Below are positions 9,279 through 37,865 of a DNA stretch of 64,000 nucleotides, one piece after another (position 1 is the first letter of the stretch; each line of letters starts with the position of its first letter). The stretch is from Marsupella aquatica. Taxonomy: Eukaryota; Plantae; Marchantiophyta. The position numbers and the translations under genes are program-made. Under the pieces are notes generated by a model, which did not search any database, had not been told where the DNA came from, and worked only from the letters and a program-made list of their open reading frames with translations. The stretch covers positions 28,029,145 to 28,093,144 of the forward strand of contig OZ316891.1 of the NCBI GenBank assembly GCA_973895155.1, given 5' to 3'.

Positions 9279-9413
9279 TGTTATACCCTAACTAGGATTA
9301 GATATCTTAACCCGAGTTAAGATCTAACCAAGATCTAACTCAACTACCTCATGTATATATATTGGACACATGAATAAGATTCATTACATTGTTGGAGTAT
9401 ATGGTTTGCAACA
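9279..9413 (+). repeat. 5' LTR of Bianca-like Copia
   Basis: TGTTATACC...TTGCAACA, 134/135 identical to 15628-15762. Confidence 0.97.
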
Positions 9414-9427
9414 CGTTATCAGCACGA
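9414..9427 (+). promoter_or_regulatory. Primer-binding site (Bianca-type, half tRNA-Ile)
   Basis: CGTTATCAGCACGA lies directly after the 5' LTR; the tRNA assignment is from recalled knowledge of the Bianca lineage. Confidence 0.7.
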
Positions 9428-10659: not shown

Positions 10660-13600
10660 ATGGCAATGGAGAAACTGTTATTCCCAGCACTGAGAATTGA
10701 CGGGAAGAAGTACAATGATTGGACAATAGACGTGGAGGTCAACCTCACGGCAAAGAGGATCCCAAAAACCATACATACGGATATTGGGGTGGATCAATAC
10801 CAGAAGGCACAAGCATTAGTCCTACTAAGACACCACTTAGTAGAACCATTAAAACAACAATACAAGACGATATACAACCCAAGGCTCCTATGGAATGCAT
10901 TGAAAGAGAGATTTGAACACATAACAACTATAAACTTACCAAATGCGCTACAAGCATGGGTAACCTTAAGAGTGCAAGATTTCAAAACGGTAGACTTATA
11001 CAACAGCGAGATGTTCCGCATCTCGAACGAACTCCAAATGTGCGGTGAACCAGTGAATGATAAACAACAAATCGAAAAGACACTAGCAACATTTCACCCT
11101 ACAAACTTAGTAATCTCAAACCAGTATAGAAATATGGCATTCACTAAATACTCAGCATTAATAGCACACATGCTCTTGGCAGAACAAAACTCAATCCTAC
11201 TCATGACAAATGCAAAGGATAGACCCCCGGGTACACTCCCCATACCTGCTACCACCGAGACGAACTTAATTATAAACGAGAAACAAAAAGAAGCTAACAT
11301 GACCACACCTTATGATAGAAATACAAGTAAATTCAGGGGGAGAGGCTCATATAGGGGAAGAGGAATGATGCAAGGACGATCAAACGACTCCTACAGAGGA
11401 GGATCCAGCAGATTCAGCAACCGAGGAAGGGGCCGTGGAAGAAACAACTCCCAAGGAAGGAACACATGGAAACGAGGCCGCAACAACTACCAAGAGAAGC
11501 CAAGAAACAACTCAAACAGCTCAATCACATGCTTCAGGTGCGGTACAAAAGGTCACACCCAAAAGGTATGCCATGCCCCAGCCCATCTTGTGAAACTCTA
11601 CAAGCAAAGTTTGGATGGATCAAAATATGAAACCCATGGAGTTTACCTTGAATCACCTGAGATTATACCAGAAATTCATATGGTAGACCCCCCAATGGAC
11701 CTAGAGGATATAGATGTATGCATCATAGACAGCGCAACATCACACACTATCCTCCGAGATAGAAAATATTTCCACGAAATTATCCCCTCACAAAGGCAAA
11801 TCATCACCATAACCGGAGAAAGCCAAATAGAAGAAGGCCACGGAAGAGCTACCTTAACTCTTCCGGGAGGCACTATAATCAGATGCCCATCTGCCATATA
11901 TGCCCCCAAAGCAAGAAGGAACCTTTTAAGTTTCCAAGATATTAGAGCCAACAACTACCATATCCAAACAAACACCCAAAACTCACAAGAAGTATTGCAA
12001 CTAACATCACACTCAGAAGGAGGGATAATCATTAGAGAAACCATCTCTCCCCACCCTTCAGGGTTCTACATCACCCAAAACCAAAGTTACAACCTAGGGG
12101 TAGAAACCAAAGATATCACCGAGACATGGCACATGAGATTGGGACACCCAGGAACCAGCATGTTCCATAGGATAGTCAACAACTCAACAGGAATACCAAA
12201 GACCTGTCACCCAAGGTCATTCCAAAAACCATGCATCGCCTGCTCCCAGGGCAAGATGATTACAGCCCCCTCCATCCCAAAAACCGAAAACCATATCCCC
12301 GCATTCCTTGAGAGACTCCATGCGGACGTATGTGGACCAATAGACCCACCAAGTGGACCATTTCGATACTTCTTGGTAGTGATAGACGCCAGTTCTAAGT
12401 GGTCCAGAGTATCCTTATTATCAACCCGAAACCTAGTCTTCCCAAGAATCCTTACACACATCCTAAGACTAAGGTCACAATTCCCTGAAAATCCAATTAG
12501 AACCCTTAGAACCGATGGAGCTGGTGAATTCACTTCTAGAACCTTTGACGAATTTTGCACAATAAATGGCATTGACTCCCAACATAATGTACCTCATGTC
12601 CACTTCCAGAATGGACTAGCGGAGTCACTTATTAAACGCATACAGCTGATTGCTAGACCACTATTAATGCAATCATCACTCCCAACATCAGCATGGGGCC
12701 ATGCAATATTACATGCTGCAACCCTACTCCTTTATAGACCATCAGCCTTTAACAGCAACACACCTTATCACCTAGCTTTCGGGCAACCACCAAACATCTC
12801 ACACCTAAGAATATTTGGATGTCAAGTCCTCGTCCCCATACTAGGTCCTAATAGAACCAAAATGGGACCACAACGGAGGAAAGGCATCTATGTAGGATTT
12901 GACTCAACATCTATCATACGATACATGGAACCTACAACCACTGACATATTCAAAGCCCGTTTTAGCGATTGCCATTTCTATGAACACATTTTCCCAACCA
13001 TTAACACGCAAGAGGGAAAACATAAGTCATACACCAAAACACTCACATGGCAAGCTTCCCCGGCACTTTGCCCAGATCCTCGAACTAACCAAACTGAACT
13101 AGAAGTCAATAGGATACTTCAATTAACCAAGATCATGGAGTCCTTACCCGACTCATTTACTGATGCTACCAACGTAACTAAATCCCATATACCAGCGGCT
13201 AATACACCATCCCGCATACAAGATCAGAGACTATCCTCTGACACACACCCACAACTCAAAAGAGGTAGACCACTAGGGGCAGTTGACAAACAACCTAGAA
13301 ACAAACGTAGACCACCTACACCAACCAACCATACTAGGCCACCACCCCAACCAGAGATAGCCATTAACTATAACTCCACTGGTCACATATTAGATAGAAT
13401 GATGATCAACCCTGATCCCACATTTGCTCTTCATGTTGCAAATGATATTAACAACCTACCAGATCCCAAATCAGTGACCGAAGCACAAAAACAAATAGAT
13501 TGGAGAAAATGGCAAAAGGCCATGAACTCCGAATTAGACTCCTTGATATCTAGAAAAGTCTTTGGACCTATAACAGTAGCTTCCCCAGACCAACACCTCA

Positions 13601-13953
13601 CGGGATATAGGATGACATTTGTTAAAAAGCGAAACTCACATGGAGAAATAGTAAGATATAAAGCTAGGCTGGTTGCTAAAGGCTACACACAAGTTTATGG
13701 AACTGACTATGACCTGACATACTCACCGGTCATGGACGTCACCACATACCGCTATTTGATAGCATTTGCCATAAACAACAACCTGTTAATGCACCAAATG
13801 GACGTTGTTACTGCTTACCTTTATGGTAAACTGGACAACGTGATTTATATGGAAGCCCCGCCTGAACTCATTGAGAGAGTAAACTTCCATGCAAATTCAA
13901 ACATAATCCACATATGCACAATGATAAAAGTGCAAAATCATTTGACTATATGA
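10660..13953 (+). CDS. Copia polyprotein part 1: Gag (Zn knuckle), protease, integrase, N-terminal RT
   Basis: KLLFPALRIDGKKYNDW (Bianca-type gag start), CFRCGTKGHTQKVC, IIDSATSH, WHMRLGH..CIAC, HADVCGP/RTDGAGEF/NGLAE, YKARLVAKG and MDVVTAYLYG. Confidence 0.95.
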   Translation: MAMEKLLFPALRIDGKKYNDWTIDVEVNLTAKRIPKTIHTDIGVDQYQKAQALVLLRHHLVEPLKQQYKTIYNPRLLWNALKERFEHITTINLPNALQAWVTLRVQDFKTVDLYNSEMFRISNELQMCGEPVNDKQQIEKTLATFHPTNLVISNQYRNMAFTKYSALIAHMLLAEQNSILLMTNAKDRPPGTLPIPATTETNLIINEKQKEANMTTPYDRNTSKFRGRGSYRGRGMMQGRSNDSYRGGSSRFSNRGRGRGRNNSQGRNTWKRGRNNYQEKPRNNSNSSITCFRCGTKGHTQKVCHAPAHLVKLYKQSLDGSKYETHGVYLESPEIIPEIHMVDPPMDLEDIDVCIIDSATSHTILRDRKYFHEIIPSQRQIITITGESQIEEGHGRATLTLPGGTIIRCPSAIYAPKARRNLLSFQDIRANNYHIQTNTQNSQEVLQLTSHSEGGIIIRETISPHPSGFYITQNQSYNLGVETKDITETWHMRLGHPGTSMFHRIVNNSTGIPKTCHPRSFQKPCIACSQGKMITAPSIPKTENHIPAFLERLHADVCGPIDPPSGPFRYFLVVIDASSKWSRVSLLSTRNLVFPRILTHILRLRSQFPENPIRTLRTDGAGEFTSRTFDEFCTINGIDSQHNVPHVHFQNGLAESLIKRIQLIARPLLMQSSLPTSAWGHAILHAATLLLYRPSAFNSNTPYHLAFGQPPNISHLRIFGCQVLVPILGPNRTKMGPQRRKGIYVGFDSTSIIRYMEPTTTDIFKARFSDCHFYEHIFPTINTQEGKHKSYTKTLTWQASPALCPDPRTNQTELEVNRILQLTKIMESLPDSFTDATNVTKSHIPAANTPSRIQDQRLSSDTHPQLKRGRPLGAVDKQPRNKRRPPTPTNHTRPPPQPEIAINYNSTGHILDRMMINPDPTFALHVANDINNLPDPKSVTEAQKQIDWRKWQKAMNSELDSLISRKVFGPITVASPDQHLTGYRMTFVKKRNSHGEIVRYKARLVAKGYTQVYGTDYDLTYSPVMDVTTYRYLIAFAINNNLLMHQMDVVTAYLYGKLDNVIYMEAPPELIERVNFHANSNIIHICTMIKVQNHLTI

Positions 13954-15260
13954 ACAAATTGGTACTCCACAATGCTTCTAAAGCAATTGCATTAAAAGAA
14001 CCTAGAAAGGACCATAAGGCAACCGGAGCAAAGACTCGGTATGCAGTTCAAGTCCTTAGTTCCATTTATGGACTCAAACAGAGTGGACGTACATGGTACC
14101 AAAGATTTAAAAATCAAATGATATCCATGGGATATAAGAATTCCGAAATAGCTCCTTGCTTATTTATAAAGCATGAAGGACCTGAATTCATAATCATCGC
14201 TATATATGTTGATGACCTCAACCTCCTTGGTACGAAAAAGATGATGAATGAGTCAATGCAAACGCTAAAAAGCGTATTTGAAATGAGAGACATGGGCAGA
14301 ACTTCTTATTGCATTGGACTACAATTTGAACATTTGGAAAAAGGCATTCTTTTACACCAAACTACTTACACAAAGAAAATATTACAACAATTCAGAATGA
14401 ATATGTTGAAGCCTGTTAAATCCCCCATGGACATCCGTACCCTTGATAAGGATAAGGATATGTTTAGAAAAAGAGAAGGATTCGAACCTATATTAGGTTC
14501 AGATATGCCATACCTTTCGGCTATCGGTGCTCTTATGTTTTTATCTAATCAAACAAGACCAGACATAGCATTTTCTGTCAACCTACTGGCGAGACATAGT
14601 TCTCAGCCCACTATAAGACATTGGAACGGGGTAAAACGAATTTTCAGATACCTTAATGGTACATCCGACCTCGGCCTATATTTTCCTAATGAGGATAACC
14701 ATAAGTTGACAGGATATGTTGACGCGGGATACCTTTCTGATCCACATGACGGTAGATCTCAAACAGGATATATATTCTTCATGGGATCAACACCAATATC
14801 TTGGAGAAGTACTAAGCAAACACTTGCAACAACTTCTTCAAATCATTCAGAAATTATTGCCCTTTATGAGGCTACTAGAGAATGTTTATGGCTACGGCAA
14901 GTACTAGACCATATTCTTATTCAAACAGGTAAACAACGCTTAACCATGCCTACAACTATATTTGAAGACAATATGTCATGCATCACTCAAATCAAATCAG
15001 GATTTATAAAAGGTGAACGCACAAAACATATTGCACCCAAGTTCTTTTTCTCACATGAACAACAAGGAAAAGACATTGACATACAATGGATTTCAGGAGA
15101 CAAGAACTTGGCTGACATCCTAACAAAATCTCTACCCCCATCTACTCATAGAACACTAACTCACCTCTTAGGGATGCGAAGTCTTAAGAAACTGATGCAG
15201 GATTCTAACATTGAGGGGGAGAATGGATTTTTCTACAACAACACTATTGAAGATGAATGA
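13914..15260 (+). CDS. Copia polyprotein part 2: RT core and RNase H (different frame)
   Basis: SIYGLKQSGRTWY, IYVDDL, GYVDAGYLSD, FEDNMSC, TKHI and ADILTK. Confidence 0.95.
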   Translation: MHNDKSAKSFDYMNKLVLHNASKAIALKEPRKDHKATGAKTRYAVQVLSSIYGLKQSGRTWYQRFKNQMISMGYKNSEIAPCLFIKHEGPEFIIIAIYVDDLNLLGTKKMMNESMQTLKSVFEMRDMGRTSYCIGLQFEHLEKGILLHQTTYTKKILQQFRMNMLKPVKSPMDIRTLDKDKDMFRKREGFEPILGSDMPYLSAIGALMFLSNQTRPDIAFSVNLLARHSSQPTIRHWNGVKRIFRYLNGTSDLGLYFPNEDNHKLTGYVDAGYLSDPHDGRSQTGYIFFMGSTPISWRSTKQTLATTSSNHSEIIALYEATRECLWLRQVLDHILIQTGKQRLTMPTTIFEDNMSCITQIKSGFIKGERTKHIAPKFFFSHEQQGKDIDIQWISGDKNLADILTKSLPPSTHRTLTHLLGMRSLKKLMQDSNIEGENGFFYNNTIEDE

Positions 15261-15627
15261 CTACTTACTATGAAGAAGCAAACCATCAATACTACCACAA
15301 AGGAGATCAAGACATTCTCAAGAACATCAATAACTCACATACACTACAATGAAGACAATGGAGACAACAACCTCTATGGAGCTTAACAACATAGAAAACA
15401 CAATTAAACCAGTATTGTACTCTAGATCTTACATACATACAAAATAGATCATACAAAAGAGATGGAAGGTGGCAATACTCTTTCCTTCCATGATGTTAGT
15501 AGGGAAGGTTTTAATGAGGTTGCACCTCCATCATCTCACAATATAACATAGGTAGAAGATATCTAACTGATAGCAACTTAGATTGGTTGTTATAATTTCA
15601 TCAAAAACTATAACACCCAAGGGGGAG

Positions 15628-15762
15628 TGTTATACCCTAACTAGGTTTAGATATCTTAACCCGAGTTAAGATCTAACCAAGATCTAACTCAACTACCTCA
15701 TGTATATATATTGGACACATGAATAAGATTCATTACATTGTTGGAGTATATGGTTTGCAACA
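15628..15762 (+). repeat. 3' LTR of Bianca-like Copia
   Basis: Preceded by the PPT and followed by TSD ATTCT. Confidence 0.97.
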
Positions 15763-18533
15763 ATTCTCACATTTTTGTGGTTCTTCATCAAGACAGTAAG
15801 CACAAAAATAGCATAGTTCCCTCACTTGCAATAGAGTTGAAAGTCGGTTACTAAATCCATCAAAACAATGCATTGCTCTACATCCTGGGATTGCATCACA
15901 GTCCCATTTCTTGTGCCGATTCACAGTTGTAGCACCTATTTCCCAAAACAATCGCCTCACAAGCAAAACATCACCATACTCTCTCTCAATACCAATGGCA
16001 AACTTTTCCTTGCAAAATGCAACTACATCATGAGCATTTTCCAAGCGAAAGCCATGCGTCCCCTTCAACTGCTCTCTCTGTATCCCGCTCTTGATGTGGC
16101 CTCCAAGGGCATCCTATCCATGCAGAAAAAGTCCATTCAATGTCACACAAGCATACAACTAGACTCCAAAGAATAATGTTCTTGTATAACGGTAAAGAAG
16201 CTCATATGAAACTAAATAATGAGAACAACACAGTGAATTCAAATATTGGAGGTAGAGTTCCACACTTACAGCTACACCCTTTCCATGTCCTGAAGCATGG
16301 AAAAACCATTTCATCCGTGCACCAAATCTCTTGTAATACCTTGAGACGTAGTAGAAAGGTCTACAAGCCTTAAATTGTGAGGCAGCTCCATCGGACCAAA
16401 CCCAATGCTGAGTGAATTCAATTCCCTCTTGCTTCATCCAATGGTAATGAGCATCCATGCAATGCTGCACAAACAAGGTGTCGTGAGTATTATCATCACT
16501 GATATAGAAATGATAGTCGGCGATGATATCTCTGTCACCAGCTTCACTCTGTGCCATACTCACTGTCCGTCCCACTGCAGCCTCCATAGATTGGTGCACA
16601 TCTTCTCGATGTCTATAGGTCACATGGATCAACAAAGTAATCTGTTTGTTGTCCCAATGTTGCGATTGAATCTCATTTTGCGTCTTGAAAGTGTAATTTT
16701 CAGAGAAGTCAATTGAAGACACTATGGTTCCTCTTGGGAACGTCTTCAAACACAATCTAAACTGGTCACTTTGCCAGCGAGCTCTAAAATCATGAACAAC
16801 AAATGACTTCATTCTAGCTTCGACCACGTTCCTGAAATCACTTACAGACGTAGTCTTATACACCATCCTCAAGCGTTTAGACTTTTTTTGTGAACTCTCA
16901 TCACTTCCCTGCTTCTTTGCTTTCTTCATTTGTAAGTTGTCATCTAACTCCTGATATTCAAAACTCTGCCAACTAATAGTTAGTTGTTGTGTGGAATCCA
17001 ACTCCCATGGACACCAGTCCAGATTCAGCGTTCCACAATCTACACAAACTCCCATAATACAGTCCTTCTTGTGCCATACCTGCCCCTCGGTTTTCTTACA
17101 CAACGCTTCCATCCAACCTCGAACAGAGGTAATGTGTGTCCTTGAAGCTACACAAGAAACACCTAATGGAATGGCCACTGATTTACAAGTACAACACTGA
17201 CAACTACACTCAGAGGGGTGATGAAACTTCCTGAATTTGTTTAGTGCCTCTTTCAGGAGGTCCATTTCAACGTGCTGCTTGCAGCAGCATACATTTCCAT
17301 CCTTCATGGTTCGAATGTAAAACGGTTTCAGATAACTGAAGGACCGCAGGCCTATAGAAACAACATTGTTCTCAGCCTTGCACCAATCTTGGAACTTGAA
17401 GAAAAATTCAACCTGTAAATAGACATCAACAGGGTGTTAATAGATTACCCAAATTCAGGCTCTCAAATTTGTATCGTTGGCTACAACTGAAGACGGGACT
17501 AAAGAATGCAAAAATTTTTAAGAACTCTCAAAGAAATTGAAGTAGCCAATGTGAGGATATCCTACCTCTGTATCCTCGAGCCAATGTACTTTATGTTCCT
17601 CATGTTGATTTGGTCCAAGTCGCTTTCTAGCTATCTCTTTCTTGCCTGGTGAGATTCTAGTGTATGTGCTCCAAAATAGTTCAACAATCTTGCGCACCTC
17701 TGCACTAATCTTGTCACTCCTGGTTTTCCTTTCCCCCATTGGGTATTTTATACATTGGTTCTCATCTATCTGCTTCCGCATGTTTGATGCTTTTTGAATG
17801 TTGTGTCTCTTGATACCAAAAGCCTTAGCTAAAGAGGACTGATATCGCTTGCCAACCGTGGACTGTCCGACCATAGCTACCAACATTGAATGCTTTATAG
17901 CCAAGTGATCTTTCTTTTTACCCAACTTCACAATTTGCAAGGTCTGCCTAAGGTCAGTTATAGCAGCTCCTACAGATGCATCTAACTTAGGGGTCCCAAG
18001 AGCTGCAGGATGATATTCTCTCAATGAAGAATAACACCAAAATTGCTCTAGGACTACCTTCCTTGCGGATAAGTTGAAATCTCTCATTTTTTTGAATAAG
18101 ACTGAAGTTACCTCGGAGACCACTGAATCAACCGCTCGTCTCGTTCTATTGGGCGTTTCCTCAGCAAGATGACTAGACAAACTTAAACTTCTCATCCTCC
18201 GAAGTCTCCAATAACAAGAAGCCTTAAGGGATGAGTCCAAAGCCTTATTTCTCTTTTCAAAATCTTCATGATATTAAAAAATGTGTACCAAAAAACCACC
18301 AAAAAATGGTATGTATTTTCCAAACTAGACTCAAGAGAATTTTACCACCAAAATCTAAGCATATCTTATATGATATTCTCACAATTGTATAAACCTTGAA
18401 ATATGCACTTTATAAAAGTAATCAAAATCAAACTCATCGATCAGAGTTTAAGTCAAACTCAAAGTTTTACAAAATATAACCCAACTTAAGCCCAAGTGGT
18501 TTCAAATGCTACGAGTCCCTCTATTTATCTAGT

Positions 18534-21500
18534 CTAATCCAAAGGGACCGCTTCCCCTTCCTCGGTTCTGGAAGTCCCTGTCGTCAATTCTGGAACAATT
18601 GTGGCATCGTCAACCATGCTATCCTCTTCGGCCTGAGGAATGTCTTCCTCACTCTCCTCATCCGTCTCCCCCTGTCCGTCTTCCTCTTCAATGTTATCTA
18701 CAAGGTTAAGAATCCTCCCTTTCAACACACTGCTCTGTCGCTCGTCAATCTCAATGGCAACGCAATGTCTCCCCATGGCCAAGGAGGAGGTTGTCCCAGT
18801 CCCTGATCCTGAACAAATATCCAAAACCCAGTCTCCAACCTGACTAAAATGACTCACTTCCCAATCTAACAATGCACGTGGTTTCTGATAAACATTCACT
18901 GCCTTGTTATCCCCGTTGTGTTTCAGCTTCTTAGTCACAGCTGCGCATACAACCACATTGTTCCTTGATTCATTTGTGTCAAAATTGAAGTGCTCCAATG
19001 ACCGTTTACCATCCTGGCTGTGAAAGCCAATTGTAAAGCACTCAAAGTTGTTGTTCAATCTTGGTCCACCAGCATTCTTCACATTATCCTTAACCCTGAA
19101 AAGTCACAAAAAGTCAAGGAGTTATTTAAACTTAGAAACATGGTTCATGAAATCATGAATAACTAATAGTTGTTTTTTTCAAAAACAAATATTTCTTACC
19201 ACACACAATTCTGGAACCCTCCATTACACTCCGCTTTCAAAACGGTCTTGATGGCCTCATATTGGTCAAGGCTGTGGTGAATGATAATACGCCACAACTT
19301 TGCAGTAGTAGCCACCTTGAACGATTGGACCATTTTTGTGATCTCCTCAGTTCCCCATCCAATAGTGTCCTCATGAAGACATCCAGGCAATGCAAACCCG
19401 TAGGGAATATCCACTAAAGCTAATGTGTAAGCCCGACCCGGAACCACCTCATGTAATCGCTGAGCATCATGAGTAAAAATATCATAGTGCACATCACCAA
19501 ACTCTGGATGCTCAAACGAATTTGGATGAAGTTCCCCCTCTTGGTTTGCCGACTAGAACTCTTCATGGATAGCCAATTTTGGGCTTGCACAATATGCGCA
19601 TTGAATTTGTCCGGGAATGACTTGAGATCTTTGCCTTCCTCATCTCCCTTCTTTTTCCGGGAGGTGGTATCTTTCTACAAAAAGGAACTGTACAATTAGA
19701 AACAAGGATTCCAAATATTAAATGAATTCAAACAATCATTCGAAGAAAGGTGACAGAATCTTACCCATGTCTGGAAAATAGGTACGAAATTCTTAAGCAC
19801 ATTGTCTGTGCAATGCTCAGGGTACTTGGTTTTACAACCTGACCAACTCTCCTCGTGTAGACACGTGAGGAAGGCCTTTTGCACCTGCATCTGAAATTTG
19901 TGTCGAGTAAATTCGTGACCCATTTCCTGTAAAGAGAGTTCTTTAGTAAGAACTCTCTGTAACACTGGGCAAATCATATCAGGATCTTTCAAGGCGTGCA
20001 TGTGTCTCCACTCGTTAATTTCATGTCCTCATAAGGCAATTTGGCATCTCCAAACTTAGAGACTTTCTTCTTGCCCTTGTCTCCTTTTTGACCTTTGATC
20101 TCACACATCTCCCACTTGTCACAAATCTGCCTCACAAATGACCACACAGGATCTTGTTGGAATGCCAACTGAAATAGGTTATCATTGGCATTAAGAACCT
20201 CAACATCCTTTCGTACACCCCAATCCTTGAGATTGATTTCAGTAGCACACTCTTTCTTGAAATCCTGGTTGGACGACAATCCATTCTCAACAAATCTCAT
20301 GTGAATATAATTTACTCTCTGGATTGTCGTCATCTGTTGTCAAAATTCAGAATCAATATTGTGACTCCATGCCAGGTTTCTTGCCTCTTGCACACTCAAT
20401 CCCGCAAATATCCAAGATTGCACTCTCCGAAATGCCTTGTTGTTAGGGAACTGAAGAGCAAGGTCTGCTTTGGCACAGGCTGAATGGTTGCCCCCAATCA
20501 CATAATAATGGTAATCAGCTTTCCTTGAAAAATCAAAGTCTTGCCTAGTAGCACACTCCTTCGGATCCACCAAGAGGACAAACGGAGCTGCAAGTGGACT
20601 GGCACCTACAGTCTTCATACGCAAGGTCAATTGGGTCAAGAAATATGGTTGGATGTGTCGGACCTGGTAAATGGGCAAGCCCACAGCCTTCTCTCTCACT
20701 GGAGGGTAAAGTTGACCAATGTCAATGGTCACGGTCTCCTCTTGAATACCACATCTTCCCAGAATCTCCTCCTGGTACAATACAAGTGCATCCATTGACA
20801 TTGATTGAGCCTTTTGCTCCAAATGCGCTGGAATTTTCTCCAAAGTCTTCTTTTTTGACTTTGGAGCACTGGGCTCGGTAGGCTCAGGAGTCATAGCAGG
20901 TCGCTTCTTTGAAGAAATGCGAGTTCCAGTCGTACCTTGTGCCAACCCACTAGTCAAAGCCGTTCCCTGGGATGATCTGCCAACTTGAGATCCCCCTCCA
21001 GATGCTGCTGCTTCCCGGGAGGTTGTAGGCGCTACCACGGTCAAAATATCATCGGGTAAAATGCTAGGCCTGGATCCAGAAGGAACACCGGAAGCCCCAG
21101 ATTTGGGTGGACGACTTACCCCCTTCTCTGCCGACCTTTTCTGGAGAATCTCTCTTGATTTTCGAATTGCACTCTTTAAAGTGCTAGCGTGAAATTCGAA
21201 CACAAAACCGGAAATCTTTCCCGCGACGTCGTGGTAACGTTCCTCACTCAAAAGAGACTTGACAGTCTCAATGATGCTATCGATGTCCTCATCGAGATAG
21301 CAGGTGGCAGCCGTTCCAGAAAACCTCTCCACATCCACGACAATCAAAGTTGATGTTTCCTTCGTTGTGATCAACATGTTCACAACTTCGTCGCCCCGTC
21401 GAAATACATCGATGCGGCCGTAATTTACCCACCCTAATGCCCCCGATGGAAGCCCCTCAAATACACACAGCAATAGGAAGGGCTTCTTCCATGTTTCCGT

Positions 21501-21593
21501 CCCTAAGGAAATCGTCTAGGATGAGTTGTGGAAGTCCGTCAAAGGATGGCGCGAAAAGATGTCATCCACCAGCTCTTCCTGCGACATTGTCAT
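18534..21593 (-). pseudogene. ParB/Srx-like domain fused to a beta-class N6A/N4C DNA methyltransferase, 3 exons, degraded
   Basis: ParB-like part: IDIGQLYPP..QVR..LTLRMKTVG..PFVLLV..YYVIGGNHSACA..EARNLAWSHN. MTase part: motif IV LVDIPYG (about 19411-19400), CVW|VKD..NNFE, YQKPRALL, then motif I VLDICSGSGT and GRHCVAIEID. GT-AG introns are 19764-19675 and 19199-19096. Stops at 21516 and 20340; frameshifts at about 20013 and 19550. Confidence 0.85.
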
Positions 21594-21758
21594 GTTTTTG
21601 CCTGATCTTCAAACCTGAGAACATACCACAAAATCAGTCCACTTCAACCCCAACCTGCGAGACAAAATGCCACAGGACCAAGGAATGTGCCAACAAATGG
21701 CTACTAAAGCCGTGTCCTTACGGATCTAACAACGCTCTCGGCCACCCCAGGACTCCTA

Positions 21759-21823
21759 TCATGAATTCATGAAGGGAGTCTCCCTCTCGCTCCGACCTTC
21801 ATGAATTCATGAAGGGAGTCTCC
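21759..21823. promoter_or_regulatory. Duplicated palindromic site TCATGAATTCATGA(AGGGAGTCTCC) in the divergent intergenic region
   Basis: Copies at 21759 and 21799; 21796-21815 is a perfect 20-bp palindrome (CCTTCATGAATTCATGAAGG). The regulatory role is inferred from position only. Confidence 0.5.
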
Positions 21824-22268
21824 TCTCTCTTTGCTTGTACACCTCGGTGATGCAGAATGGTATTTTAAATAGGGTTCGGAGGGGGGGTGACGTGAAGAAA
21901 TCACCCAGGGCCTAAATTACTACCTAAAATAGGGTCGAAATGAAGTGCAACCGCGACAACTCGCGACACGTCGCCGATGAGTGCTGAAAATGGCACGAAA
22001 TTGGACAACGAGATTGTTTTTCACTCTTTTACAAAGGAAATCCAAATGACATTGAGTGAAAATGAATGGGCTGCCCCGTGTTCCTTGGTTATACATACTA
22101 ATCACGGATCAGGCGCGACTTAGTAAAATTAACCCCGAATCATGATAAATCAATGTTTTCGGGCCAATTATTCATGAATATTTTGGGATATTAACGGGAA
22201 AAAGCTTGCAAATTTCATGAATATTTGATATTTTTGAAGTTAAAAAGTCCCAACAATCCGTGAAAAAC

Positions 22269-22276
22269 TATAAATA
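22269..22276 (+). promoter_or_regulatory. Candidate TATA box of the plus-strand transposase
   Basis: TATAAATA about 100 bp upstream of ATG 22374. Confidence 0.4.
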
Positions 22277-22373
22277 GGCTTGTTTATTCATGACTCTTGG
22301 TCATTATTTTGAGAAGATTTGTTAGATTTTACTTATTTTCTGAGTTTCTTGTCAATTTGCACTAGTTTTTCCA

Positions 22374-25300
22374 ATGGCGGCATGTTACGAATCAGATGAT
22401 TATTCAGATGGAGTTTCTGATGATGTTTCATTGCCAGATGGCCCCTGCACAGTGGTTGGCCCAGATATCCCTGGAATAACTACTGTTTTAGATATGCCAC
22501 CCCCACCCCTATGAGCAAGTTAAAACGTAGTCCTTTACGACTTGCAATTAGTGGGAAGAAATCATTGGTTGGTGGTAAAGAGAGGTCAGGGAGCTCCTCT
22601 GACTCCTTGGAGAGTATTGGTCCCCCTGGACGTCAAGTTGTATCTCCTTTGTCACCAACAAAGGACAAATTGGGGAGTAATCTGGAAGGTTCAATGCCTA
22701 TTTGGATGTCTGGGAAACGGTCTCATGAATTCATGAAGACTGGATTTGGAAAGACGAAGAAAGCACTAAGTGGGGAAAATGATAGAGATTTTTGTAGTCT
22801 CCAAAGTGTTCAGCGGCTGAAGCAAATGCCAAAAAGTAAAACCTTTGGTAAGCCAACGTCGGAAACATTTCACAGGGGGATGAGGGAAGAAACTAGACGA
22901 CCAGTGTTATTGAAAAGTATTCCAGAAAGGAATTCTAATGTGCGTTCCTCAGTTTTACCTAGGAGTCATGGTGTTGGGGCAGGGAGCAGATCAAGTCATG
23001 GAAACTCAAACAGGGAAACCAACCTGGTGGAGAGGGACCCTAGGAAAATATTAAAAGGGTCCCTACACGGTAATGGAGGGATTTCTGAAATATGCCCAGG
23101 TATTCCAAGGCTGCATAGAGTGAAGGAAGAGCCTCCATCTCCGAAGGTTGCAGGTCTGGAATCTCGGCATGTTCAGAAGCAAATGTTGGTGACCATTTCA
23201 TCATCGAATGAAAGCGAGTCTTCGGAGAGTGGGGAGGATGATGATGTTCCGGTGGCATCTAGTCGTTACAAACGTACGAGCAACGCCACTTTGTGTGAAA
23301 CAAAGTTGAAAGAGGAGGATATCAAGAAAACAAATAGTAAGTACTGTTGTCAGAGTCATTGTCTCCTAAGTCTATCTCCAAAAGAAATTCGTGAGGCGCG
23401 TTCTAAATTTTTGAGGCATAAATCTCAGGATCGATCTTTATCTTTGCAGTGGCTTATAAAGCGAGACGGAAATGAAGGAGGGAGGCAGACTATATCTTAC
23501 ACGTTTGGTCAAAAGAGTATTTGTCGGAAAGCTTTCAAGCTTATATTTTGCGTTGGCAATCATAGATTAAATAGAATTTTGAAATTAGACAACCAAGACT
23601 TAGGATATTCTAAACCAGTTGGACGCCCTCCATCTGTTAAAAGATTAGTCTTGGTCAGTTGGCTTAGGTTGTTTTTTGAGACACGCGTGGAAACATTGCC
23701 AAATAAAGAAGTTTCACATTTACCGGATAATTATTCAAAGCTGGAGGTATGGAAGATCTACGACTCCAACTATGCCAAGATTGATGAATCATCAAAAATA
23801 TCCTATCGACAATTCTTGAAAGTTTGGGTTCAAGAATTTGGTCATGTGAAGATTCCTCCAGTCAATCGATTCAGTGCTTGCGCGGATTGCGAGGAGTTCA
23901 AATCAATTCAGGACAAAGCTGTCTCAGAGACCAAAAAGAGTAAGTTACTTACAAGTTTGACAAGTTTTTGTTTCAAGAATATGGCTTAGCACATGATTTC
24001 TATTTTTTTTTAAGAAACTAACAAGTTGTTTTTCCAGGGCGAGGGGAAATTATGTTACAAAAACATAGAGACCAACAATCCAAAGAACGTGAGAAACTCG
24101 CGAAGCATCGTAAGAAATGTTTTTCAAATTCTGATAAATATTTGGGAGTTGTCATTGATGGGATGGATCAGAAGAAGACAAGGTTGCCTCATTGGCCGCG
24201 GCCCCCAAAATCGGTGGACGAAACATGTTTGATCCAAATGCACGTTGTCGGATGCCTGGTTTTCAATGGTGCACTATTTTCAAGAGTGTTTCTTAATTAT
24301 CCTGTATTGCATAATGATGGAAACTTGACAGTCACAATCCTGCAAAGGGTGTTTCACGAATGGGAAGAAAAGCTTGGTGGCTTGCCGCCTGTTCTCTATC
24401 TTCAACTTGATAATACCAGTAGAGAAAATAAAAATAATTTACTCTTTGCCTATCTTCATATGTTGATTTGAAGAAAGGTTTTTCGGAAAATCAAACTAGG
24501 ATTCTTGTTGGTTGGACACACACACGACCAAATAGATCAAATGTTCAGTCGATTTTCTAAACGACTAGCAAGGTTTAAGGCATTCACATACGAAAGCCTA
24601 TGTGATATTATTTGTGAATCATATCAACCCCAACCAAATATCACTCTTTTAAAGGAAACATATGATTTCCGTCAATATGCCTTCTCAGATCCACCTTTAG
24701 TCATTGAAAGGATTCGAAATGTTACCTTCCACCACCAATACAAATTTGCATTTGACAAGTTGGAAGATCAAGTTCCAACCCAATGGGGGAAGAAGTTTTC
24801 CACGGACGAGTTAACTTGGAAACCTGACGGAGGCGTGAAAGTTTTGAGGGAAGAGGAGCCAGAAAAGGTGATGGGTTGTGCTCCCAGATTACCCCTTTTC
24901 AAAAAGGGGGATAAGAACGTTACAAGGACTCAACCAAATATGTCTAGTTCTTCAAGAATGACTTTGAAGGAGATGGATGATTCGTTAAATGAGATTCAAA
25001 AGGGAATACTTGCAGTTGAAACTTTATTCTCAGAAGAGGAAGTGAACTGGTGGAGAATGTTTTTTGAAGAGCAACGGGAATTGAATAAATCTTTGCTCCT
25101 TGATCAAAGACCATTGATTTTCCCTTTTCAATGGCCACGCTCTCAAGGGGAGATTGCTGTTGCTGCTGAAGTTCCCAGAGTCCTTGTCAATGAAGAGGAA
25201 ATTGAAGAGAGAGTATACGGACCTACCAGAGATATATACGTGGGTCCTTATCGGAATCAAGGAAAGATAGATGCAGAGAAGGAGAATATGGAAGGAGACT

Positions 25301-25773
25301 TTTCGGATCTTGTAGTCAACACTTATATTTCTGTTGCTGGAGAAGAATTGGAAACATTTTGGGTGGCCAAGGTGGAAAGAATTGACCAGCGCGACGAGTT
25401 CAACATTCCAAAAATGATTTATGTTTTATGGCATGCTGCAAAAACCGGGTCAGATCCTTGGAAAGCCAAGTACTTACCAGAAGTCTTAAACTACGAAAAG
25501 AAGAAAAGTGGTCGTGGGAAAGGAACTTTGAAACCAATATGGTTTCACCAAGAGCTTGATTTATCTTCAACGACTGTTTTTGCTTACAACTTCATGTTGA
25601 CAAAATCTGATACATTGTACAAAAAGACAGTAGATCGAATCAAAATCCGATTGACTGAATTTTTGGCAGAAGAGAAAGAGCAAGAACAAGAGAATGGATC
25701 AGCTAGAACCCCGCTAGGAGATAAATCTAGGGATATTTCATTTCAAGAATTGAGGACTTCTGGATCTGAGTAA
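22374..25773 (+). pseudogene. Sola1-like (DUF7869-type) DDD transposase, 2 exons
   Basis: CCQSHCL, ICRKAF, FSACADC..KHRDQQ (C2H), and a catalytic-like triad VIDGMDQ / LQLDNTSRENKN / VGHTHDQIDQMFS. GT-AG intron 23940-24037 keeps the frame. In-frame TGA at 24469 and a probable frameshift in the C-run at about 22505. Confidence 0.8.
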
Positions 25774-26331
25774 TGAAAAGTAGTTATTGTTTGTGACATT
25801 ACCATTGAAAAACATGGATAACTTGAAATTTTACAAATTTTCAAAATGCCCTTACCACTTATTCATGAATTCATGGTTAAAGTTTCTTGAGAAATTTGTA
25901 GTTTAATATTATCTTAGTGGGTGTGTTTCAATTCAATTAGATGGTGTCATTTCTATTCTCCTTGTCTTCTTTTCACAATAATGTGTATCAGGTTAAGTTG
26001 TAGTAATTTATTTTCTGGTTTTTAAATGACAATGGCTTTTGGAGGTGATTTAGTTGTTGTTTCAAAAGACACCTCGTGTAATTGTGAGACCATTGTAGAT
26101 AATAGTGTTGTATTTGAGATCATTTATTGGTGGAATGTAACTTCAGATGAATTTGGTCATTTTTAGGTGTCAAAACATAGCTAGTTTATGTCATATTTTG
26201 TTCGCTCCATATTTTTGCTCTAAAATAGGTGCTAATTTTTGCACTTTTTTTGACTTTTTCGTTGTTTTTCTGATTTTTTGGCTAGAGTTCCTAAAGTATG
26301 GGCTTGTTACTCATCATTTAAGGCTTCTTGT

Positions 26332-26930
26332 TCAATATGCAGCTCGTTTTCTAGCAGCATCTTTCTCCCTGAATTCTCTGGCCAAATGAGGGTCCTCTTG
26401 CATGCTTTGTAGACAGTGAGCTCCTTCACCTAATCGCACACGCAGTACTTCGAGGGCGGCTTGCTTTTGCCCTATCCTAGAGCGCAAACGTGACAATGTT
26501 TCTTTGCCTTCAGCACAGTCATTCTCGATGTTGTGCAGCTTCAACGCAGCTTGAGCGGTTGCCTCTCCATGTAAGCGCAACGCCTCATTTCTAGCAGCAG
26601 TTAATAATACCTCACTTTGCTGCTGAGCATGAAGAAGCAATTGATCAGCTTGCTGCTGAGCATGAAGAAGCAACTGATCAGCTTGCTGCTTGGCATCAAA
26701 AATCAGGCCCGTACTATTGCCGTCTTTTGGTTGAATGCCTCTATTCAATTGCTCAGTGTTGACCTCTTGGCACTGCCCGATAGGCTTGTCATACCATGAC
26801 TTTCGCCTTCAAAAATTGCGCCGTTCTCTTTTTTCTTTCTCTTCTTGGGATTCATCTTGGCGCCCCGCTTGGCGCCGCACTGGTGGCATCTCGCTAAAAT
26901 TGATGGCAGCTCCTACAACACGATGAGCTT
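26332..26930 (-). pseudogene. Coiled-coil protein with 11-residue (hendecad) repeats AQQQADQLLLH
   Basis: ORF 26332-26748 extends upstream in frame through one TGA (26809-26811). There is a 33-bp DNA tandem repeat at about 26617-26690. Confidence 0.5.
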
Positions 26931-27282
26931 TTGAACGTAAGTTCAAAACAATATTTCATAAGTTAAAGAGGCCATGGTCCAAGTTAAATGAGGCTCTAGA
27001 TGGCAAAAATTCATGTGGGAACACCCGCACTCAGGCAAACAAAAAATGGAGTCTAACAACATTGAGATGTCGCGCGGCTTACCCTTTACCAACGAGGTGA
27101 ACACCCTACATTGCACAAGACGGTCGCCAAGCTTTTTGCTAGTTCTATGGATGATCTTTAGAATTTGTCGAATCCGCTTGAGGCCAGAAGCTCTCTGGTA
27201 AAACTCCTGAAGCAAACCCGCAAAACATTACCGCAGATAGTCGACAGCCCTTCAATTCCCATGGCTCCCTGCCTCTTCCGTA

Positions 27283-27310
27283 GAGTCCTAGCTGAGCCTA
27301 GCTAGGACTC
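27283..27310. other. Hairpin with 11-bp perfect stem (GAGTCCTAGCT-gagcct-AGCTAGGACTC)
   Basis: Direct inspection; lies 12 bp outside the right 14-bp inverted repeat. Confidence 0.8.
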
Positions 27311-28168
27311 CTTAGTCTACGCGTAATTAAGTATTTTGAAATTCAAATCGCTACTTAAGTCTTGTTTCATTGGTATTCATTACCACTTGGACTTCCTTTT
27401 AAGTCCTTTTGTCCTTAACCATTGAATCATTAATGGACGCTACTCCTAATCAAACCTCCTAGCACGCTTCCAAATGGACTGCTGGAGGTGAGGGGAAGAT
27501 CTCACCTTCCATTCTCAATAAAGCAATCCAGGCCATTAGGTGTAACACCTTGTCCATCCCTTGAAAAAAGGGAAGGACTGGAATCCTTTTGGTGGAGATT
27601 TTGGATATCCTTTTTGCCCCCCTCAAGCTTGCATTTGACCCATATGAAGGAGTAACTTGTCCATTGAGTGTATGCAAAAATGCTCTTTGTTTGATGGATT
27701 CTTGTTTGAGATACCCATGAGGAGATGCAGGTTCAAAAGTGGGACAAAATGGAGGCCAAAACCAGGTAAGAGGTCTTACTTTTGCCCTAGTTATTGTTAT
27801 TTCAAATTCTGATTGATGATTGTTGATGAAACCTGAGTTTGATACCCTAGAGCATGGAGAAAGTGATGTTTATGTTGTGTTTTTGAGAAGAGTGATTCAA
27901 AATCAGGTAAGAGCTCTTACTCTTGCCTTGGATGAGGTGTTCCTTGTTTCAATGCTTGTCGATTATTGCAAGCCTTGTGTTGGTTCTTGGAAGTTATGAT
28001 GATGAAGATATATGAATGATTTGCTATTGGGAAGGGTCCTTGGCTGTTGTGGGGTGTTTGACCAGTCAAAAGGGTGGCATAGGGAGGTTATAGGAAGAGG
28101 ATTCAGCCCGTGAGTTGTTAGGTCTTCCATAACTCGTATAGCTATCAAGAGACTAGGCAGGAGCTACA

Positions 28169-28579
28169 ATGGCAAATGATGAGGAGCCCACTAGTGGGTC
28201 AGTTAATATGAGGAGTGTTCAGGAGCTTTCTGATCTTTTCATAGCTATTCAGTCAGCTTTGAGAAGGGATGAGAGTAGAAGAGAGGACGTTGGTAGAAGG
28301 GAAAAGAATGAAAAGGTTCTAGAGGATAGGGTTACTAAGTGTTTACAAGCTGTCCTTTCTAGTGAAGGAGAGTTCAAGGGCAAAGATGTAACCAGGTATT
28401 TGAGAGTATATTGGAGACAAGTTGAGGTTTTTAAAATTGACCAAGCTACTGCTGTTTTGGAGTTTTCAACTCTTGTTGAGCCTGAGTTGAAGGATGTGGT
28501 TTCAAGGCTAGGGTTTGGCCTTGAAGAGGAGAATGAGTGGGAAGAGTTTGTTAAGAAGATGAAGCATCAAAAACCTTGA
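28169..28579 (+). pseudogene. Truncated Ty3/Gypsy-type gag fragment
   Basis: GEFKGKDVTRYLRVY...WEEFVKKMK resembles the retrotransposon capsid F.G.dv..fL..y...W..F pattern and ends abruptly. Confidence 0.55.
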
Positions 28580-31500
28580 AAATTACCCTGGTACCTACAG
28601 TACATGGAGGGAGAGGGTTGTCATCTAGTTATGCTCTCATATTTTAAAAGCTTTGACCCAACTTCATACCATGGTCTCCATTACACAAAGAAAGTTCGCT
28701 GTCATTCTCATTTGCAACTAAATGGGGGACCCACATGTTGTAATGAATGTGTTGTCCAGGAACAATTCTTATAAATATTTGGAGTGGCCTATTCATAGAA
28801 CAACTTCCTGGAGCATGCGTAGAGAGTGGAGTGTGCAGAGTGTGGTAAGTATAAGTGTGTGAGGTGGAGACCATGTGGGAAGGCATCCAGGGTTGCCAGA
28901 GCCTAGTCCTGCCAATGGAGAGAGATTAGTGAGTACTCTTTGTCCTGTGGGTGGGAGGGTCATTCGCCATGGGTGACACGTCCCCCTGTTGCCTGCTCCC
29001 TCCCCACCCCGCCCTGTGTTAAGCTTACCTCTCAGTCTTGGGTTACCTCTCGTAGTCTAATCAGTGTTAGGGCCTTAATGATGATTCAACTTGCCTAGAC
29101 GCGCCTAGCACAAAGAGGAGCTAGGGAGAGCTCCTTGGTGAGACTCGTGTTCATTTGTAGCAAGCTAGGAGCTAGGCTAACAATCTTGGAGCTTGTACTT
29201 GCCTGGAGGCTTGCCTTGGCTATGGTGGCCATGCCAAAGCTTAGTAAAACTCTTGTATTCATGTGGACATACCCTTGACAAAGGTAAATCATGTATTCAC
29301 AACCTCGTTCATGATGTTTGTGTGATGTGTGCCTGCACCGTCATACACAAGAAACAAAGGGTGAACAGTGCAATGTGAATGGTAAGAGCTTCTTACATCC
29401 TTTCACTGTTTTAGAGACCACCCCCTTCTCAACCCAAAACAATTTACACTAGAGTCAATGTGGGCACATGGTCCATGTTGGGTACTGGTCATGCTTCAAT
29501 GTCAAATTTTCACTTAGTCAGCCCACAGCCAAATCAGCTTTGCACAGTCCATACCAATGCTCCTGAGTGTAGTCAGGTCAGAGCTCAACGGAGCAAACAA
29601 AATGTGCCCAGGCCTTCTCAACAACAGCCTGTGGTGCGTTCCAAACCCTCTAACTACCAGAAACACCACTAACAAGCCACTCCCTTCAATTTCCGGTCTC
29701 TTAGTGGGTGGTTCTGTGTACTTATTGGGATGGGACGTTGCTAATCCCTTAGACACAATTACTGGTGAGATTCTTTCACCGGGTTATGAGGGATGATGCC
29801 AACCTCTTCCGCCCACACTTTAAGTCTCAATCTTCTTCAAGTATATTTGTATTCCACCCCTGGAATTTGCCTGATCGGCTTGGTGGTCGTTGAGGGTCTT
29901 TATCAGTCAAGCACATCGAACACTTAATCTTCACTTCTTGTCTCAGTCTCAGTCTCTCCTAGTTGGTGTGGGCAATCTCCAAACAAGCCGATGCAACACA
30001 CAAATAGCAAAAATGACTCTCACTAATTGAGATATAACCATGCAACATCCATAAACTCAGTACATCTTGTGTTCATGATCTATTACCTTAGTCATGAGGC
30101 CAACTCTATTCAGGTCATTAGTACAAGGAAAGTAGTCGAGAGCTTCCTAATGATGCACTAAAGGCGTTGCTGATGCACTAAAGGCTTGTCTTAGTGAAAA
30201 AACCATGATCTCCCCATTGCCTAGGTATTTATCCTAGCAACATGCCTGTTGTCCTACTTATGCATAATCCTAAGTCTTTACTCCTACTATAATCTACCTA
30301 TGTATAGCGGGGCAAGAGCACAAGTGTTTCTCTTGCCAAAGGATCCTCACTCCAAACTAATCTAAGTATCAGGGCCGCCTTTTGCCCCTGATCCTAATCC
30401 TAGAGGAGTGCGCCCATCTAACCGACTCACGCATCCTTCCCCACGTCCGCCCTCCCTAAAGGGGATGGCCCTCCCCCACTGTCATGCCAATGGTGGCCTG
30501 TCCTCAATGGAAGCCCCCAATCCTTCCTCCACATCCAGTATTGTGGGTCTGTCTTGTGATATGTTCCCTGTTACTGACCCGGTTAACCCAAAATTGGTGT
30601 TGTTTGGTTATGTTTGGGCTGGCAGGGCGGCTTTGGCTTTTGCCAAAAGAGTATCATTTGGAAATGTCACATGACTAGAAATGTTCAATATATACAGCCT
30701 GGTGTAATGGATACTAGAGTAGTACATATCGAATCTTGAATGTCAGGGTAGTCTGACCATATGGAGAGCACCAAAATGTTCAATGTGCATACTATTATCA
30801 TTGCTTATGGTCTTAAAGTTGGTTTATATCTATATTGAAAATGGAGTGCACTGGTTTGGATTGAGGCTATATATAACAAAGGTTTAACTTCCTAACAACT
30901 CCATTATTGTTTGCATAGTAAGCATGGACCCAATCAACCCAGATCCAATAGCGCAATCTCCATCATGGCTGAACAGTGATTCTGAGCCTAAAATCTTTGT
31001 CACCCCATATTGCATTATGTTCAACTTTGCTAATTATTTGCTAAGTTGCTTTGTTGTGTGTGTGTTTAAGAGGGTGACTTGTAGTAGCTAGTCACCTGGT
31101 AAGGGTGACCCTTTCACCCAGGTCACCACTTGTTGTGCCAAGGAAGGGGGGTTATACTTTGGAGAATGAGGATTGAGACCTCATTCTTCCAAGTTGAGCC
31201 TTTAGGCACTAGTAGGGTCTTGTCGTATGAGTATGACTATGTTGTGACAGTGGAGCCATGCCGGTTAATATGTTAGCACATTGGTCAAAATTTTGCTATG
31301 TGCATAGACAAGACTAGCGGGTGGGTTTGACTTGACTTATAGTACATTGCAATGGGGTTTTGTTTTGCATGAGATTACTTGGAAGAATTAAGAGAGGGTT
31401 CTGAGTTTGCTGGACTATGCAGGCAGCAGAGGAGCTTGGTAGAGATTTGATAATTCGTTTGTTTGTTCATCCATGAGAGTGAATCGTTGGTGCCTTGGTT

Positions 31501-37800: not shown

Positions 37801-37865
37801 TAAGAGTTTCCCTTAGCCACGTCAAGGAGCCCGAAAACCTGGTTATGAAAAAGGGAGGGAGATCG

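Follow-up and report, generated by a model that had tools for sequence, protein, structure and literature searches.

In a 64,000-nucleotide stretch of the liverwort Marsupella aquatica (assembly GCA_973895155.1, contig OZ316891.1, positions 28,029,145 to 28,093,144; hereafter the window, numbered from its first letter), we found a complete DNA transposon in which a transposase gene lies head to head with a gene predicted to encode a ParB-like domain, a helical region and a beta-class amino-methyltransferase (MTase). We propose, with a confidence slightly better than even, that this ParB-MTase is an accessory enzyme of the transposon that would bind palindromes in the element and deposit N6-methyladenine (6mA) there, thereby regulating or protecting the element. 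The evidence comes from selection on the gene family, from its predicted folds and catalytic motifs, and from a 14-bp palindrome, TCATG-N4-CATGA, shared with two related elements.

Both the architecture and the idea of self-marking have already been published, for Sola1-1 of Ectocarpus (Dinatale et al. 2025, PMC12477816). As published, the proposal that ParB-MTase genes mark the transposon that carries them is based solely on which domains are present. What is new here is the range into land plants, the evidence of selection and the candidate palindromic target site. The locus makes self-marking testable, being compact, recently mobile and multi-copy, with exact ends and selected catalytic motifs, and the candidate site at its fixed positions provides places to inspect in long-read data.

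The element is complete, multi-copy and recently mobile

The element and its two genes are laid out as follows.

18213..26332, no strand: complete terminal-inverted-repeat (TIR) DNA transposon of 8,120 bp with two divergent genes, delimited by the empty-site joint and contig depth
18213..18244, plus strand: left TIR, terminus AAC...; inverted pair of 32 nt with the right TIR, 84%, first 15 nt perfect
26301..26332, minus strand: right TIR, terminus ...GTT
18209..18212, plus strand: left copy of the target-site duplication (TSD) CAAT, from the joint and TIR symmetry
26333..26336, plus strand: right copy of the TSD CAAT, from the joint and TIR symmetry
22374..25773, plus strand: DUF7869 transposase gene of the DDE/DDD type
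18534..21593, minus strand: ParB-like, helical and beta-class amino-MTase gene, about 955 codons in three exons, broken in the window copy

We compared contigs from four sequencing runs over positions 15770-31000; one run, X1, is possibly the source of the window itself and is not independent. An empty-site joint, running from 18208 to 26333 and skipping 8124 nt, was present in three of the four runs (X1, X3 and X4, from two studies), and contig depth rose several-fold between the same two positions in all four. Thus, the earlier note, made from the letters of this DNA, had rightly placed the gene inside a transposon, which the empty site delimits to 18213-26332. In X1, depth was about 570-620 over the element and 14-16 for two flank contigs free of differences; the element is multi-copy, depth being taken as a sign of multiple copies only and not as a copy number. 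Divergence between the window copy and the X1 contigs listed is about 1% (16/1821 and 11/1001 letters in two examples), and therefore the family has been mobile recently.

The insertion target was the reading frame of another transposase gene, and that frame is continuous across the empty site. The TSD is 4 or 5 nt long, since a fifth base, A, coincides with the first base of the element; TIR symmetry favours CAAT, from this one insertion only. CAAT differs from the AWWT target preference of Sola1 (PMC3845634).

Where the window differs from X1 contigs over 15770-31000 by a transition, the window has T or A at 72 of 97 sites (p 2e-6), and 20 of the 25 best-supported checkable transition sites lie in a CG or CHG context. 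This C-to-T excess in the window copy is as expected from silencing of the element by host 5-methylcytosine (5mC).

The transposase was recognised by PF25273 (69.8 and 85.1 bits), by 134 homologues and by three motifs, DGMD (91/120), QLDN (114/120) and GHTHDQIDQ (104/120), counted among the best 120 of the 134. Its gene has an intron at about 23940-24037 and is broken in the window by a frameshift near 22499 and a stop at 24469-24471. We associate the motifs DGMD, QLDN and GHTH with Sola1, and the transposase and element are likely of the Sola1 type; the AAC...GTT termini and the duplication (4 or 5 nt here, 4 bp there) agree with Ectocarpus Sola1-1 (PMC12477816).

The pairing of the two genes recurs. 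In L002, one of two metagenome contigs carrying the gene, the beginning of this transposase, with 14/20 residues identical, lies head to head with the ParB-MTase gene. In Riccia, R1sor_010795, which scores best among the named transposase homologues there, adjoins the ParB-MTase gene R1sor_010796 at the next locus tag. Pattern scans, which are weak for distant relatives, found no relatives of the transposase in viral contigs.

The ParB-MTase gene has conserved introns and belongs to a family under purifying selection

The three exons, on the minus strand, run 21593-19765, 19674-19200 and 19095-18534, and the predicted protein comprises an N-terminal domain, a low-complexity linker, the ParB-like domain, the helical region and the MTase, in this order.

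21140..21593, minus strand: N-terminal domain of about 150 amino acids, conserved in close relatives (28-52% at the amino-acid level); homologues P0002 and P0157 are part of the evidence
20343..20760, minus strand: ParB/sulfiredoxin-fold domain with YQVR, GGNHS and HN motifs, from AlphaFold, Foldseek, VIA and motif counts
19765..20339, minus strand: helical region in the place of the helix-turn-helix (HTH) DNA-binding domain of ParB, from Foldseek alignments
19675..19764, minus strand: intron 1, GT-AG, phase 0, 90 nt, GTAAGA..TTGTAG, same position in L001 and L002
19400..19411, minus strand: catalytic motif IV, DIPY, codon 699, from sequence; Asp first in the family
19096..19199, minus strand: intron 2, GT-AG, phase 2, 104 nt, GTAAGA..TTTCAG, same position in L001 and L002
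18798..18824, minus strand: S-adenosylmethionine (SAM)-binding motif I, LDICSGSGT, codon 860, from sequence

The earlier note had described two GT-AG introns, one of them splitting a W-x-K motif, and this description held: both are kept, at the same codon positions, in L001 and L002 (2 of 42 candidate stretches), which carry the gene at 65% DNA identity. Intron 2 divides the Trp codon of W-V-K; open-frame homologues end at the position of intron 1, and divergent contigs stop at the borders of intron 2. The introns are poorer in GC (0.30 and 0.25) than the exons (0.46). Judged by their conservation only, both appear to be spliced introns of the spliceosomal type. A third GT-AG intron lies in the N-terminal domain of L001 (1008-1124) and L002 (2073-2310); the window copy is without it, which marks a gain or loss within the family.

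The window copy is dead, as the earlier note had it, with in-frame stops at 21518-21516 (TAG) and 20342-20340 (TGA) and single bases lost near 20013 and 19542. In contigs of high depth the extra base is present at 19542 in all four runs and at 20013 in three of four. In a separate comparison, three of four runs show a Trp codon at the position of the first stop; therefore, these lesions are private to the window copy. At the position of the second stop, homologues have Arg.

The family itself is under strong purifying selection. In the ParB, helical and MTase regions, the proportion of synonymous differences (pS) is 0.67-0.83, which is saturated, versus 0.12-0.26 for nonsynonymous differences (pN). 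A lack of purifying selection would have counted against the earlier note; the pN/pS ratio is 0.16-0.38 in these regions, with bootstrap upper bounds of 0.23-0.49, and in the linker it is 0.81-0.89, window versus relative. In plants, this purifying selection extends to the MTase motifs IV and I, W-x-K and YQKP, all of which are retained. Given that selection has preserved motifs IV and I, intact copies quite probably make an active enzyme.

The ParB part is predicted to have a ParB/sulfiredoxin fold

An AlphaFold (AF2) model of the ParB part, built from an alignment of 91 sequences, had a pLDDT of 88.4. Foldseek ranks 1-11 for this model were all Noc or ParB (Noc E 3.5e-5, ParB 5.1e-4), and VIA returned PadC first (Z 9.8, rmsd 3.2, 98 aligned), then KorB, SerK and sulfiredoxin; the top eight rows were ParB/sulfiredoxin-like (Z 6.5-9.8), and the next, at Z 4.5, was background. 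Thus, the modelled domain is of the ParB/sulfiredoxin fold, as the earlier note had read it. Sequence searches gave less: Pfam had no match for the ParB part of the window protein, ParBc was absent among the best 25 of 53 families listed for 91 homologues, searching PDB sequences with the ParB profile yielded a chance hit only, and a word-index search against longer proteins, a weak test, gave no match. Pattern scans of viral contigs and prokaryotic genomes, weak for distant relatives, found no relatives of the ParB part.

The conserved motifs, on the minus strand, include YQVR from 20669 and YYVIGGNHSACA from 20507. G-G-x-H is kept in 77-78 of 84-85 aligned sequences, an upstream Arg in 47/56 and a downstream Asn in 78/84. 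ParB CTPases such as Spo0J, Noc and KorB have a nucleotide-binding motif GxxR with Arg. In this family, the residue after G-G-x-H (n=84) is Ser in 46, Thr in 10, Asn in 7 and Gly in 6, which bears out the substitution of Ser for Arg that had been noticed in the window copy. We take the conserved residues to be those of the nucleotide site of the ParB consensus, except for the key Arg.

Foldseek aligned 200-237 columns with Noc/ParB chains of 180-221 amino acids (rmsd 6-15), which places the helical region where ParB has its HTH domain. This region is 65-80% identical in amino acids among relatives.

The MTase domain is probably an N6-adenine enzyme

By its sequence, the C-terminal domain is a beta-class amino-MTase: motif IV (DIPY, 19411) is N-terminal to motif I (LDICSGSGT, 18824), the permuted order that the earlier note had already seen, and YQKP (from 18890) lies between them. 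The last exon scored 35.4 bits against PF01555 (cut-off 26.7), so that of the two Pfam matches the note had suggested seeking, this one was found and ParBc was not; the same exon matched CcrM in the PDB (E 8e-4). Matches of the methylase to scFv16 PDB entries were rejected as chance matches to GSGSGT. The permuted Rossmann fold was seen in a model of the full-length homologue P0030, rather than of the window protein, so that the suggested structure prediction recovered both folds, each from its own model. For P0030, Foldseek gave CcrM (E 1.5e-11), then M.BceJIV and M1.HpyAVI, then the rotifer enzyme N4CMT. Some alignments of this model with viral methylases exceeded 600 columns, one of these being named ParB/Sulfiredoxin; PHROG 67 and 498 are the phage families matched.

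Motif IV of the family follows the pattern D-[IFLAP]-P-[YHC]. Asp is first in 24/24 aligned domains and Ser in none (DFPY 6, DPPY 6, DIPH 3, DIPY 3, DFPC 2, DAPY 2, DLPY 1, DALY 1), a count of the domains that aligned at motif IV, the degenerate animal versions not aligning and not being counted. Canonical DPPY is kept in the metagenome homologues P0109 and P0117 and their relatives. In a search of the PDB with the family profile, the top six matches were N6-adenine (N6A) enzymes (38.9-48.2 bits), and rotifer N4CMT was tenth of 15 (27 bits). Since motif IV begins with Asp and the best solved matches are N6A enzymes, the enzyme probably acts on DNA and makes 6mA, the product that the earlier note had suggested from D-x-P-Y, with N4-methylcytosine (4mC) as the lesser possibility.

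We considered that the same self-marking enzyme might make 4mC, which could occupy the cytosines used by host 5mC silencing. The P0030 model matches rotifer N4CMT (Foldseek E 3.5e-9) and M.PvuII (5.6e-7), with which it shares the beta-class fold, the two tested eukaryotic PF01555-type enzymes considered here (N4CMT and Marchantia DN4MT1) make 4mC, and Dinatale et al. (PMC12477816) leave 4mC versus 6mA open. However, those two enzymes carry SPPY or TSPPY where this family has Asp throughout the aligned domains, and the family scores higher against N6A enzymes. Thus, self-marking with 4mC seems rather unlikely.

A palindrome recurs at matching places in three elements

A sequence scan found TCATG-N4-CATGA at these positions, none assigned a strand.

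21759-21772 and 21799-21812: palindrome pair upstream of the MTase gene, spaced 40 nt
19145..19158: palindrome inside intron 2, also in L001 and L002
22723..22736: palindrome towards the 5' end of the transposase open reading frame (ORF)
25863..25876: one-mismatch palindrome downstream of the transposase

The window contains four exact copies (0.16 expected; 0/100 shuffles), all of them within the element. L001 has an upstream pair 42 nt apart, each member in a perfect 32-nt palindrome, and one copy in intron 2 (3215); L002 has an upstream pair 40 nt apart, one copy in intron 2 (4375) and two early in the transposase frame (283 and 346). The core CATG-N4-CATG occurs 3 times in L001 (0.08 expected) and 6 times in L002 (0.13 expected). 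While the spacer varies by element (AATT, CTAG, ATAT/ATTT), this is the sole pattern common to all three elements, whether among 144 tetramer-pair patterns or among all 5+N(0-10)+5 palindromes. It survives in an intron while synonymous sites are saturated, and is therefore under selection. We rejected CpG decay as its source, because the element shows no enrichment of plain CATG (4.9 versus 5.5 per kb); for TCATGA the values are 2.0 versus 0.4. Each site holds two CATG.

We think it reasonably likely that the palindrome is a parS-like loading site of the ParB-MTase, which would recognise it as a dimer by means of the helical region.

How the enzyme might act

In the mechanism that we propose, a predicted dimer would recognise TCATG-N4-CATGA through the ParB-helical module, as ParB does with parS and Noc with NBS; the beta-class domain would methylate an adenine at or near the palindrome; and the methyl mark would affect either the shared divergent promoter or host 5mC silencing of the element. 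We give an even chance to the last step, that the mark tunes the promoter shared by transposase and methylase or counters host silencing, with the sign of the effect left either way.

Several points weigh against this proposal. Both methyl transfer and DNA binding are predictions. With Ser rather than Arg after G-G-x-H, CTP-dependent clamping of the ParB kind is doubtful, and the helical region alone reaches only Z<=4.5 in VIA, a weak score for an HTH. M.BamHI (DPPF) makes 4mC, so that an Asp motif is no guarantee of 6mA. At motif IV, P0145 (DVPN), P0069 and similar homologues from animals seem degenerate, and therefore some of the family retains ParB while losing catalysis. The evidence for private lesions covers the first stop and the two one-base losses, but not the TGA at 20342, and L001 and L002 each have one TAG and end short of the stop codon, so neither is fully intact. 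A transposase at the next locus was found for one of the three named Riccia homologues, among the matches listed (best 120 of 134). Finally, the test of the palindrome covered only three elements, which are fairly closely related, and the palindrome could be a site of the transposase or of a host factor.

If the protein were mainly a DNA-binding regulator, or a transposition co-factor that brings palindromes or ends together, methyl transfer would be secondary or dispensable. This would fit the ParB and helical regions, which are conserved as strongly as the MTase, the erosion of motif IV in animal homologues, and red-algal Plavaka, where the partner of ParB in the fusion is an oxygenase and a gene of its own encodes the MTase. 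We nevertheless judge it unlikely, given that the plant catalytic motifs are under the same purifying selection and the palindromes are internal, not terminal.

We also considered that the methylase might act in trans on host DNA (or RNA), with the palindrome belonging to the transposase or a host factor. Among the N6A-MTases that eukaryotes have captured, a move to RNA has occurred repeatedly (PMC4738411). The ParB Arg is missing here, and one palindrome lies within the transposase ORF. However, all three elements have a palindrome in the methylase's own intron as well as the upstream pair, and ParB proteins bind internal palindromes while transposases usually bind near ends, which makes action in trans improbable.

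Finally, the gene could be a passively captured piece of a host gene, carried as Pack-type cargo, or could stem from bacterial contamination, in either case playing no part in the element. This would suit a broken copy with prokaryote-like domains, but is contradicted by the selection and empty-site data. Against it are also the conserved introns, saturated synonymous divergence (dS) with low nonsynonymous divergence (dN), recurring linkage to the same transposase type, wholly eukaryotic named homologues (see below) and the lack of any relative in a pattern scan of prokaryotic genomes; it is highly improbable.

Returning to the self-marking accessory enzyme, we would extend it only tentatively to the broader idea that DNA transposons across eukaryotes run a private, phage-derived ParB/parS-like circuit, in which a palindrome-loaded enzyme writes 6mA and so marks self against 5mC silencing. 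If self-marking is true, transposons write a DNA mark of their own to counter host silencing, and land plants (liverworts, ferns, Ginkgo) have a sequence-specific enzymatic source of 6mA; it would also provide a transposon-encoded writer with a predicted target site and, on offer, a small, site-loaded, eukaryote-adapted methylase. Enzymatic DNA 6mA in multicellular eukaryotes is disputed (PMC11065753), and land plants are said to have few N6A-MTases (PMC4738411).

The family is eukaryote-wide and of likely prokaryotic origin

A library search with the ParB-helical part gave 175 matches at E<=0.001, of which 150 were listed and 30 looked up for organism. All 18 homologues with a named organism were eukaryotic: Chara braunii (6), Riccia sorocarpa (3), Ptychodera flava (3), Ginkgo (2), Adiantum nelumboides (2), Exaiptasia (1) and Saccoglossus (1). 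PF01555 was above its cut-off in 6 of 50 scanned homologues, the longer ones having been chosen (best 65.7 bits), and below it in one. Since it is present in a charophyte, a sea anemone and hemichordates, the ParB-MTase, on the sequences compared, is a eukaryote-wide family of transposon cargo and not a plant-specific capture.

Phage matches came to 554 records; among the 40 listed, they covered the MTase domain only, at 24-28% identity, and plasmids were similar. At such identity no donor can be named. Thus, of the horizontal acquisition claimed in the earlier note, a prokaryotic origin is likely, but it would be ancient, with no donor visible, and the capture was not specific to plants.

Within the family, the Chara braunii gene model CBR_g41648 (P0007) has two tandem ParB-methylase units, and the many Chara paralogues point to a large expansion. 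In homologues from Ptychodera (P0145, P0142, P0123), Exaiptasia (P0069) and Saccoglossus (P0101), the ParB-helical part is kept and motif IV is eroded or missing.

Relation to known systems

The closest known system is Ectocarpus Sola1-1_Ec32, which has an accessory gene combining a ParB-like domain with an N4/N6 MTase and for which self-binding and self-modification have been proposed (PMC12477816). Like it, the Marsupella element carries a ParB-like and N4C/N6A MTase fusion of about 1000 amino acids on the strand opposite the transposase, a likeness of architecture and description, not of compared sequence, as well as the termini and duplication described above. The host here is a land plant, as a TIR1/AFB-type F-box gene in the window also indicates, the element is 8.1 kb rather than 21.5 kb, and the TIR is 32 nt rather than 282 nt; selection, intron conservation and a conserved palindrome, which are added here, are not mentioned in the available portions of that paper. 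The same paper credits similar genes in green-algal transposons to Iyer 2011.

In red-algal Plavaka elements, PAG2 and PAG3 are a PF01555 methylase-SET and a ParB-like-2OG oxygenase, and inverted-repeat arrays adjoining the ParB-like PAG3 have been proposed as binding sites (Petroll et al., bioRxiv 10.1101/2025.02.11.637652). Both systems have a transposon-borne PF01555 methylase, a ParB-like domain and nearby inverted repeats, but the red-algal domains are in separate genes of EnSpm/Plavaka elements, whereas here they form one protein accompanied by a DUF7869 transposase.

With the bacterial and phage N6A MTases (CcrM, M.BceJIV, M1.HpyAVI, MboIIA, RsrI), the family shares the permuted fold, motif IV before motif I, and D-x-P-Y; MTases also occur at phage ParB-terminase loci (Iyer et al. 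2016, PMC4738411). Identity is only 24-28% and confined to the MTase domain, and unlike these enzymes, the family has introns, an extra N-terminal domain and a long helical linker, and is carried on a eukaryotic TIR transposon. The permuted eukaryotic MTase clades of PMC4738411, in the portions available, do not include it.

The earlier note had drawn its parallel to the bdelloid N4CMT (PMC8885841) and Marchantia DN4MT1a/b (bioRxiv 10.1101/2021.02.12.428880), for which the Ectocarpus protein is the better substitute. These are likewise eukaryotic beta-class amino-MTases derived from prokaryotes, but they are host genes with SPPY/TSPPY that make 4mC, whereas members of the ParB-MTase family have Asp, carry a ParB fusion and reside in transposons. 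In N4CMT the fusion partner is a chromodomain (PMC8885841), and ParB is unmentioned for Marchantia DN4MT1 in the available text. The ParB/Noc CTPases resemble the family in a ParB/sulfiredoxin N-terminal fold followed by helices and in an associated 14-bp palindrome (cf. parS/NBS), but the family differs in Ser for Arg after G-x-H, the lack of a ParA partner and the fusion to a methylase.

Full-text literature searches gave no land-plant report of the family or of the palindrome; Iyer 2011, Repbase (e.g. Sola1-1_PPa) or the bioRxiv supplements may cover plant copies.

Other features of the window

The gene into which the element inserted is an outer DNA-transposon gene on the minus strand (26810 to 26333, 18208 to 15763 and 9278 to 8780), split by the methylase element and a Copia element. 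It has a coiled-coil N-terminus and the motifs DFSENY, WSDGAASQFK and HGKG, and is multi-copy by contig depth; Pfam gave no match, and the ends of its element were not found. Presumably, it is Sola2-like.

Repeat arrays at 8195-8528 and 5889-6208 consist of 31-nt and 21-nt units with palindromic AAGGAC...GTCCTT and GGTCCT...AGGACT; the array at 8195-8528 directly follows the outer transposase on its downstream side and is possibly the subterminal array belonging to it. An inverted similarity of about 600 nt (68% identity) links 4136-4756 with 29960-30537; the bin 29994-30501 has high contig depth, and the pair is probably two old copies of another repeat. Both the 8195-8528 repeats and this inverted similarity were rejected as element ends.

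The Ty1/Copia element that splits the outer gene (9279-15762, plus strand) has ORFs at 10603-13953 and 13875-15260 that correspond to gag-pol, and long terminal repeats (LTRs) of 135 nt, which are unusually short; the LTRs are 99% identical, and the insertion is therefore young. A second Copia element (59399-63629, minus strand) has LTRs of about 330 nt at 96% identity and stops in pol. Matches to a chromodomain (49736-50266, plus strand) and to CHD-type DUF1087 (53787-54545, plus strand) are probably chromatin-remodeller exons of the host. A host gene for an F-box/LRR auxin receptor of the TIR1/AFB type lies at 37641-40303 (plus strand) in several exons, with PF18791 and PF18511 above cut-off.

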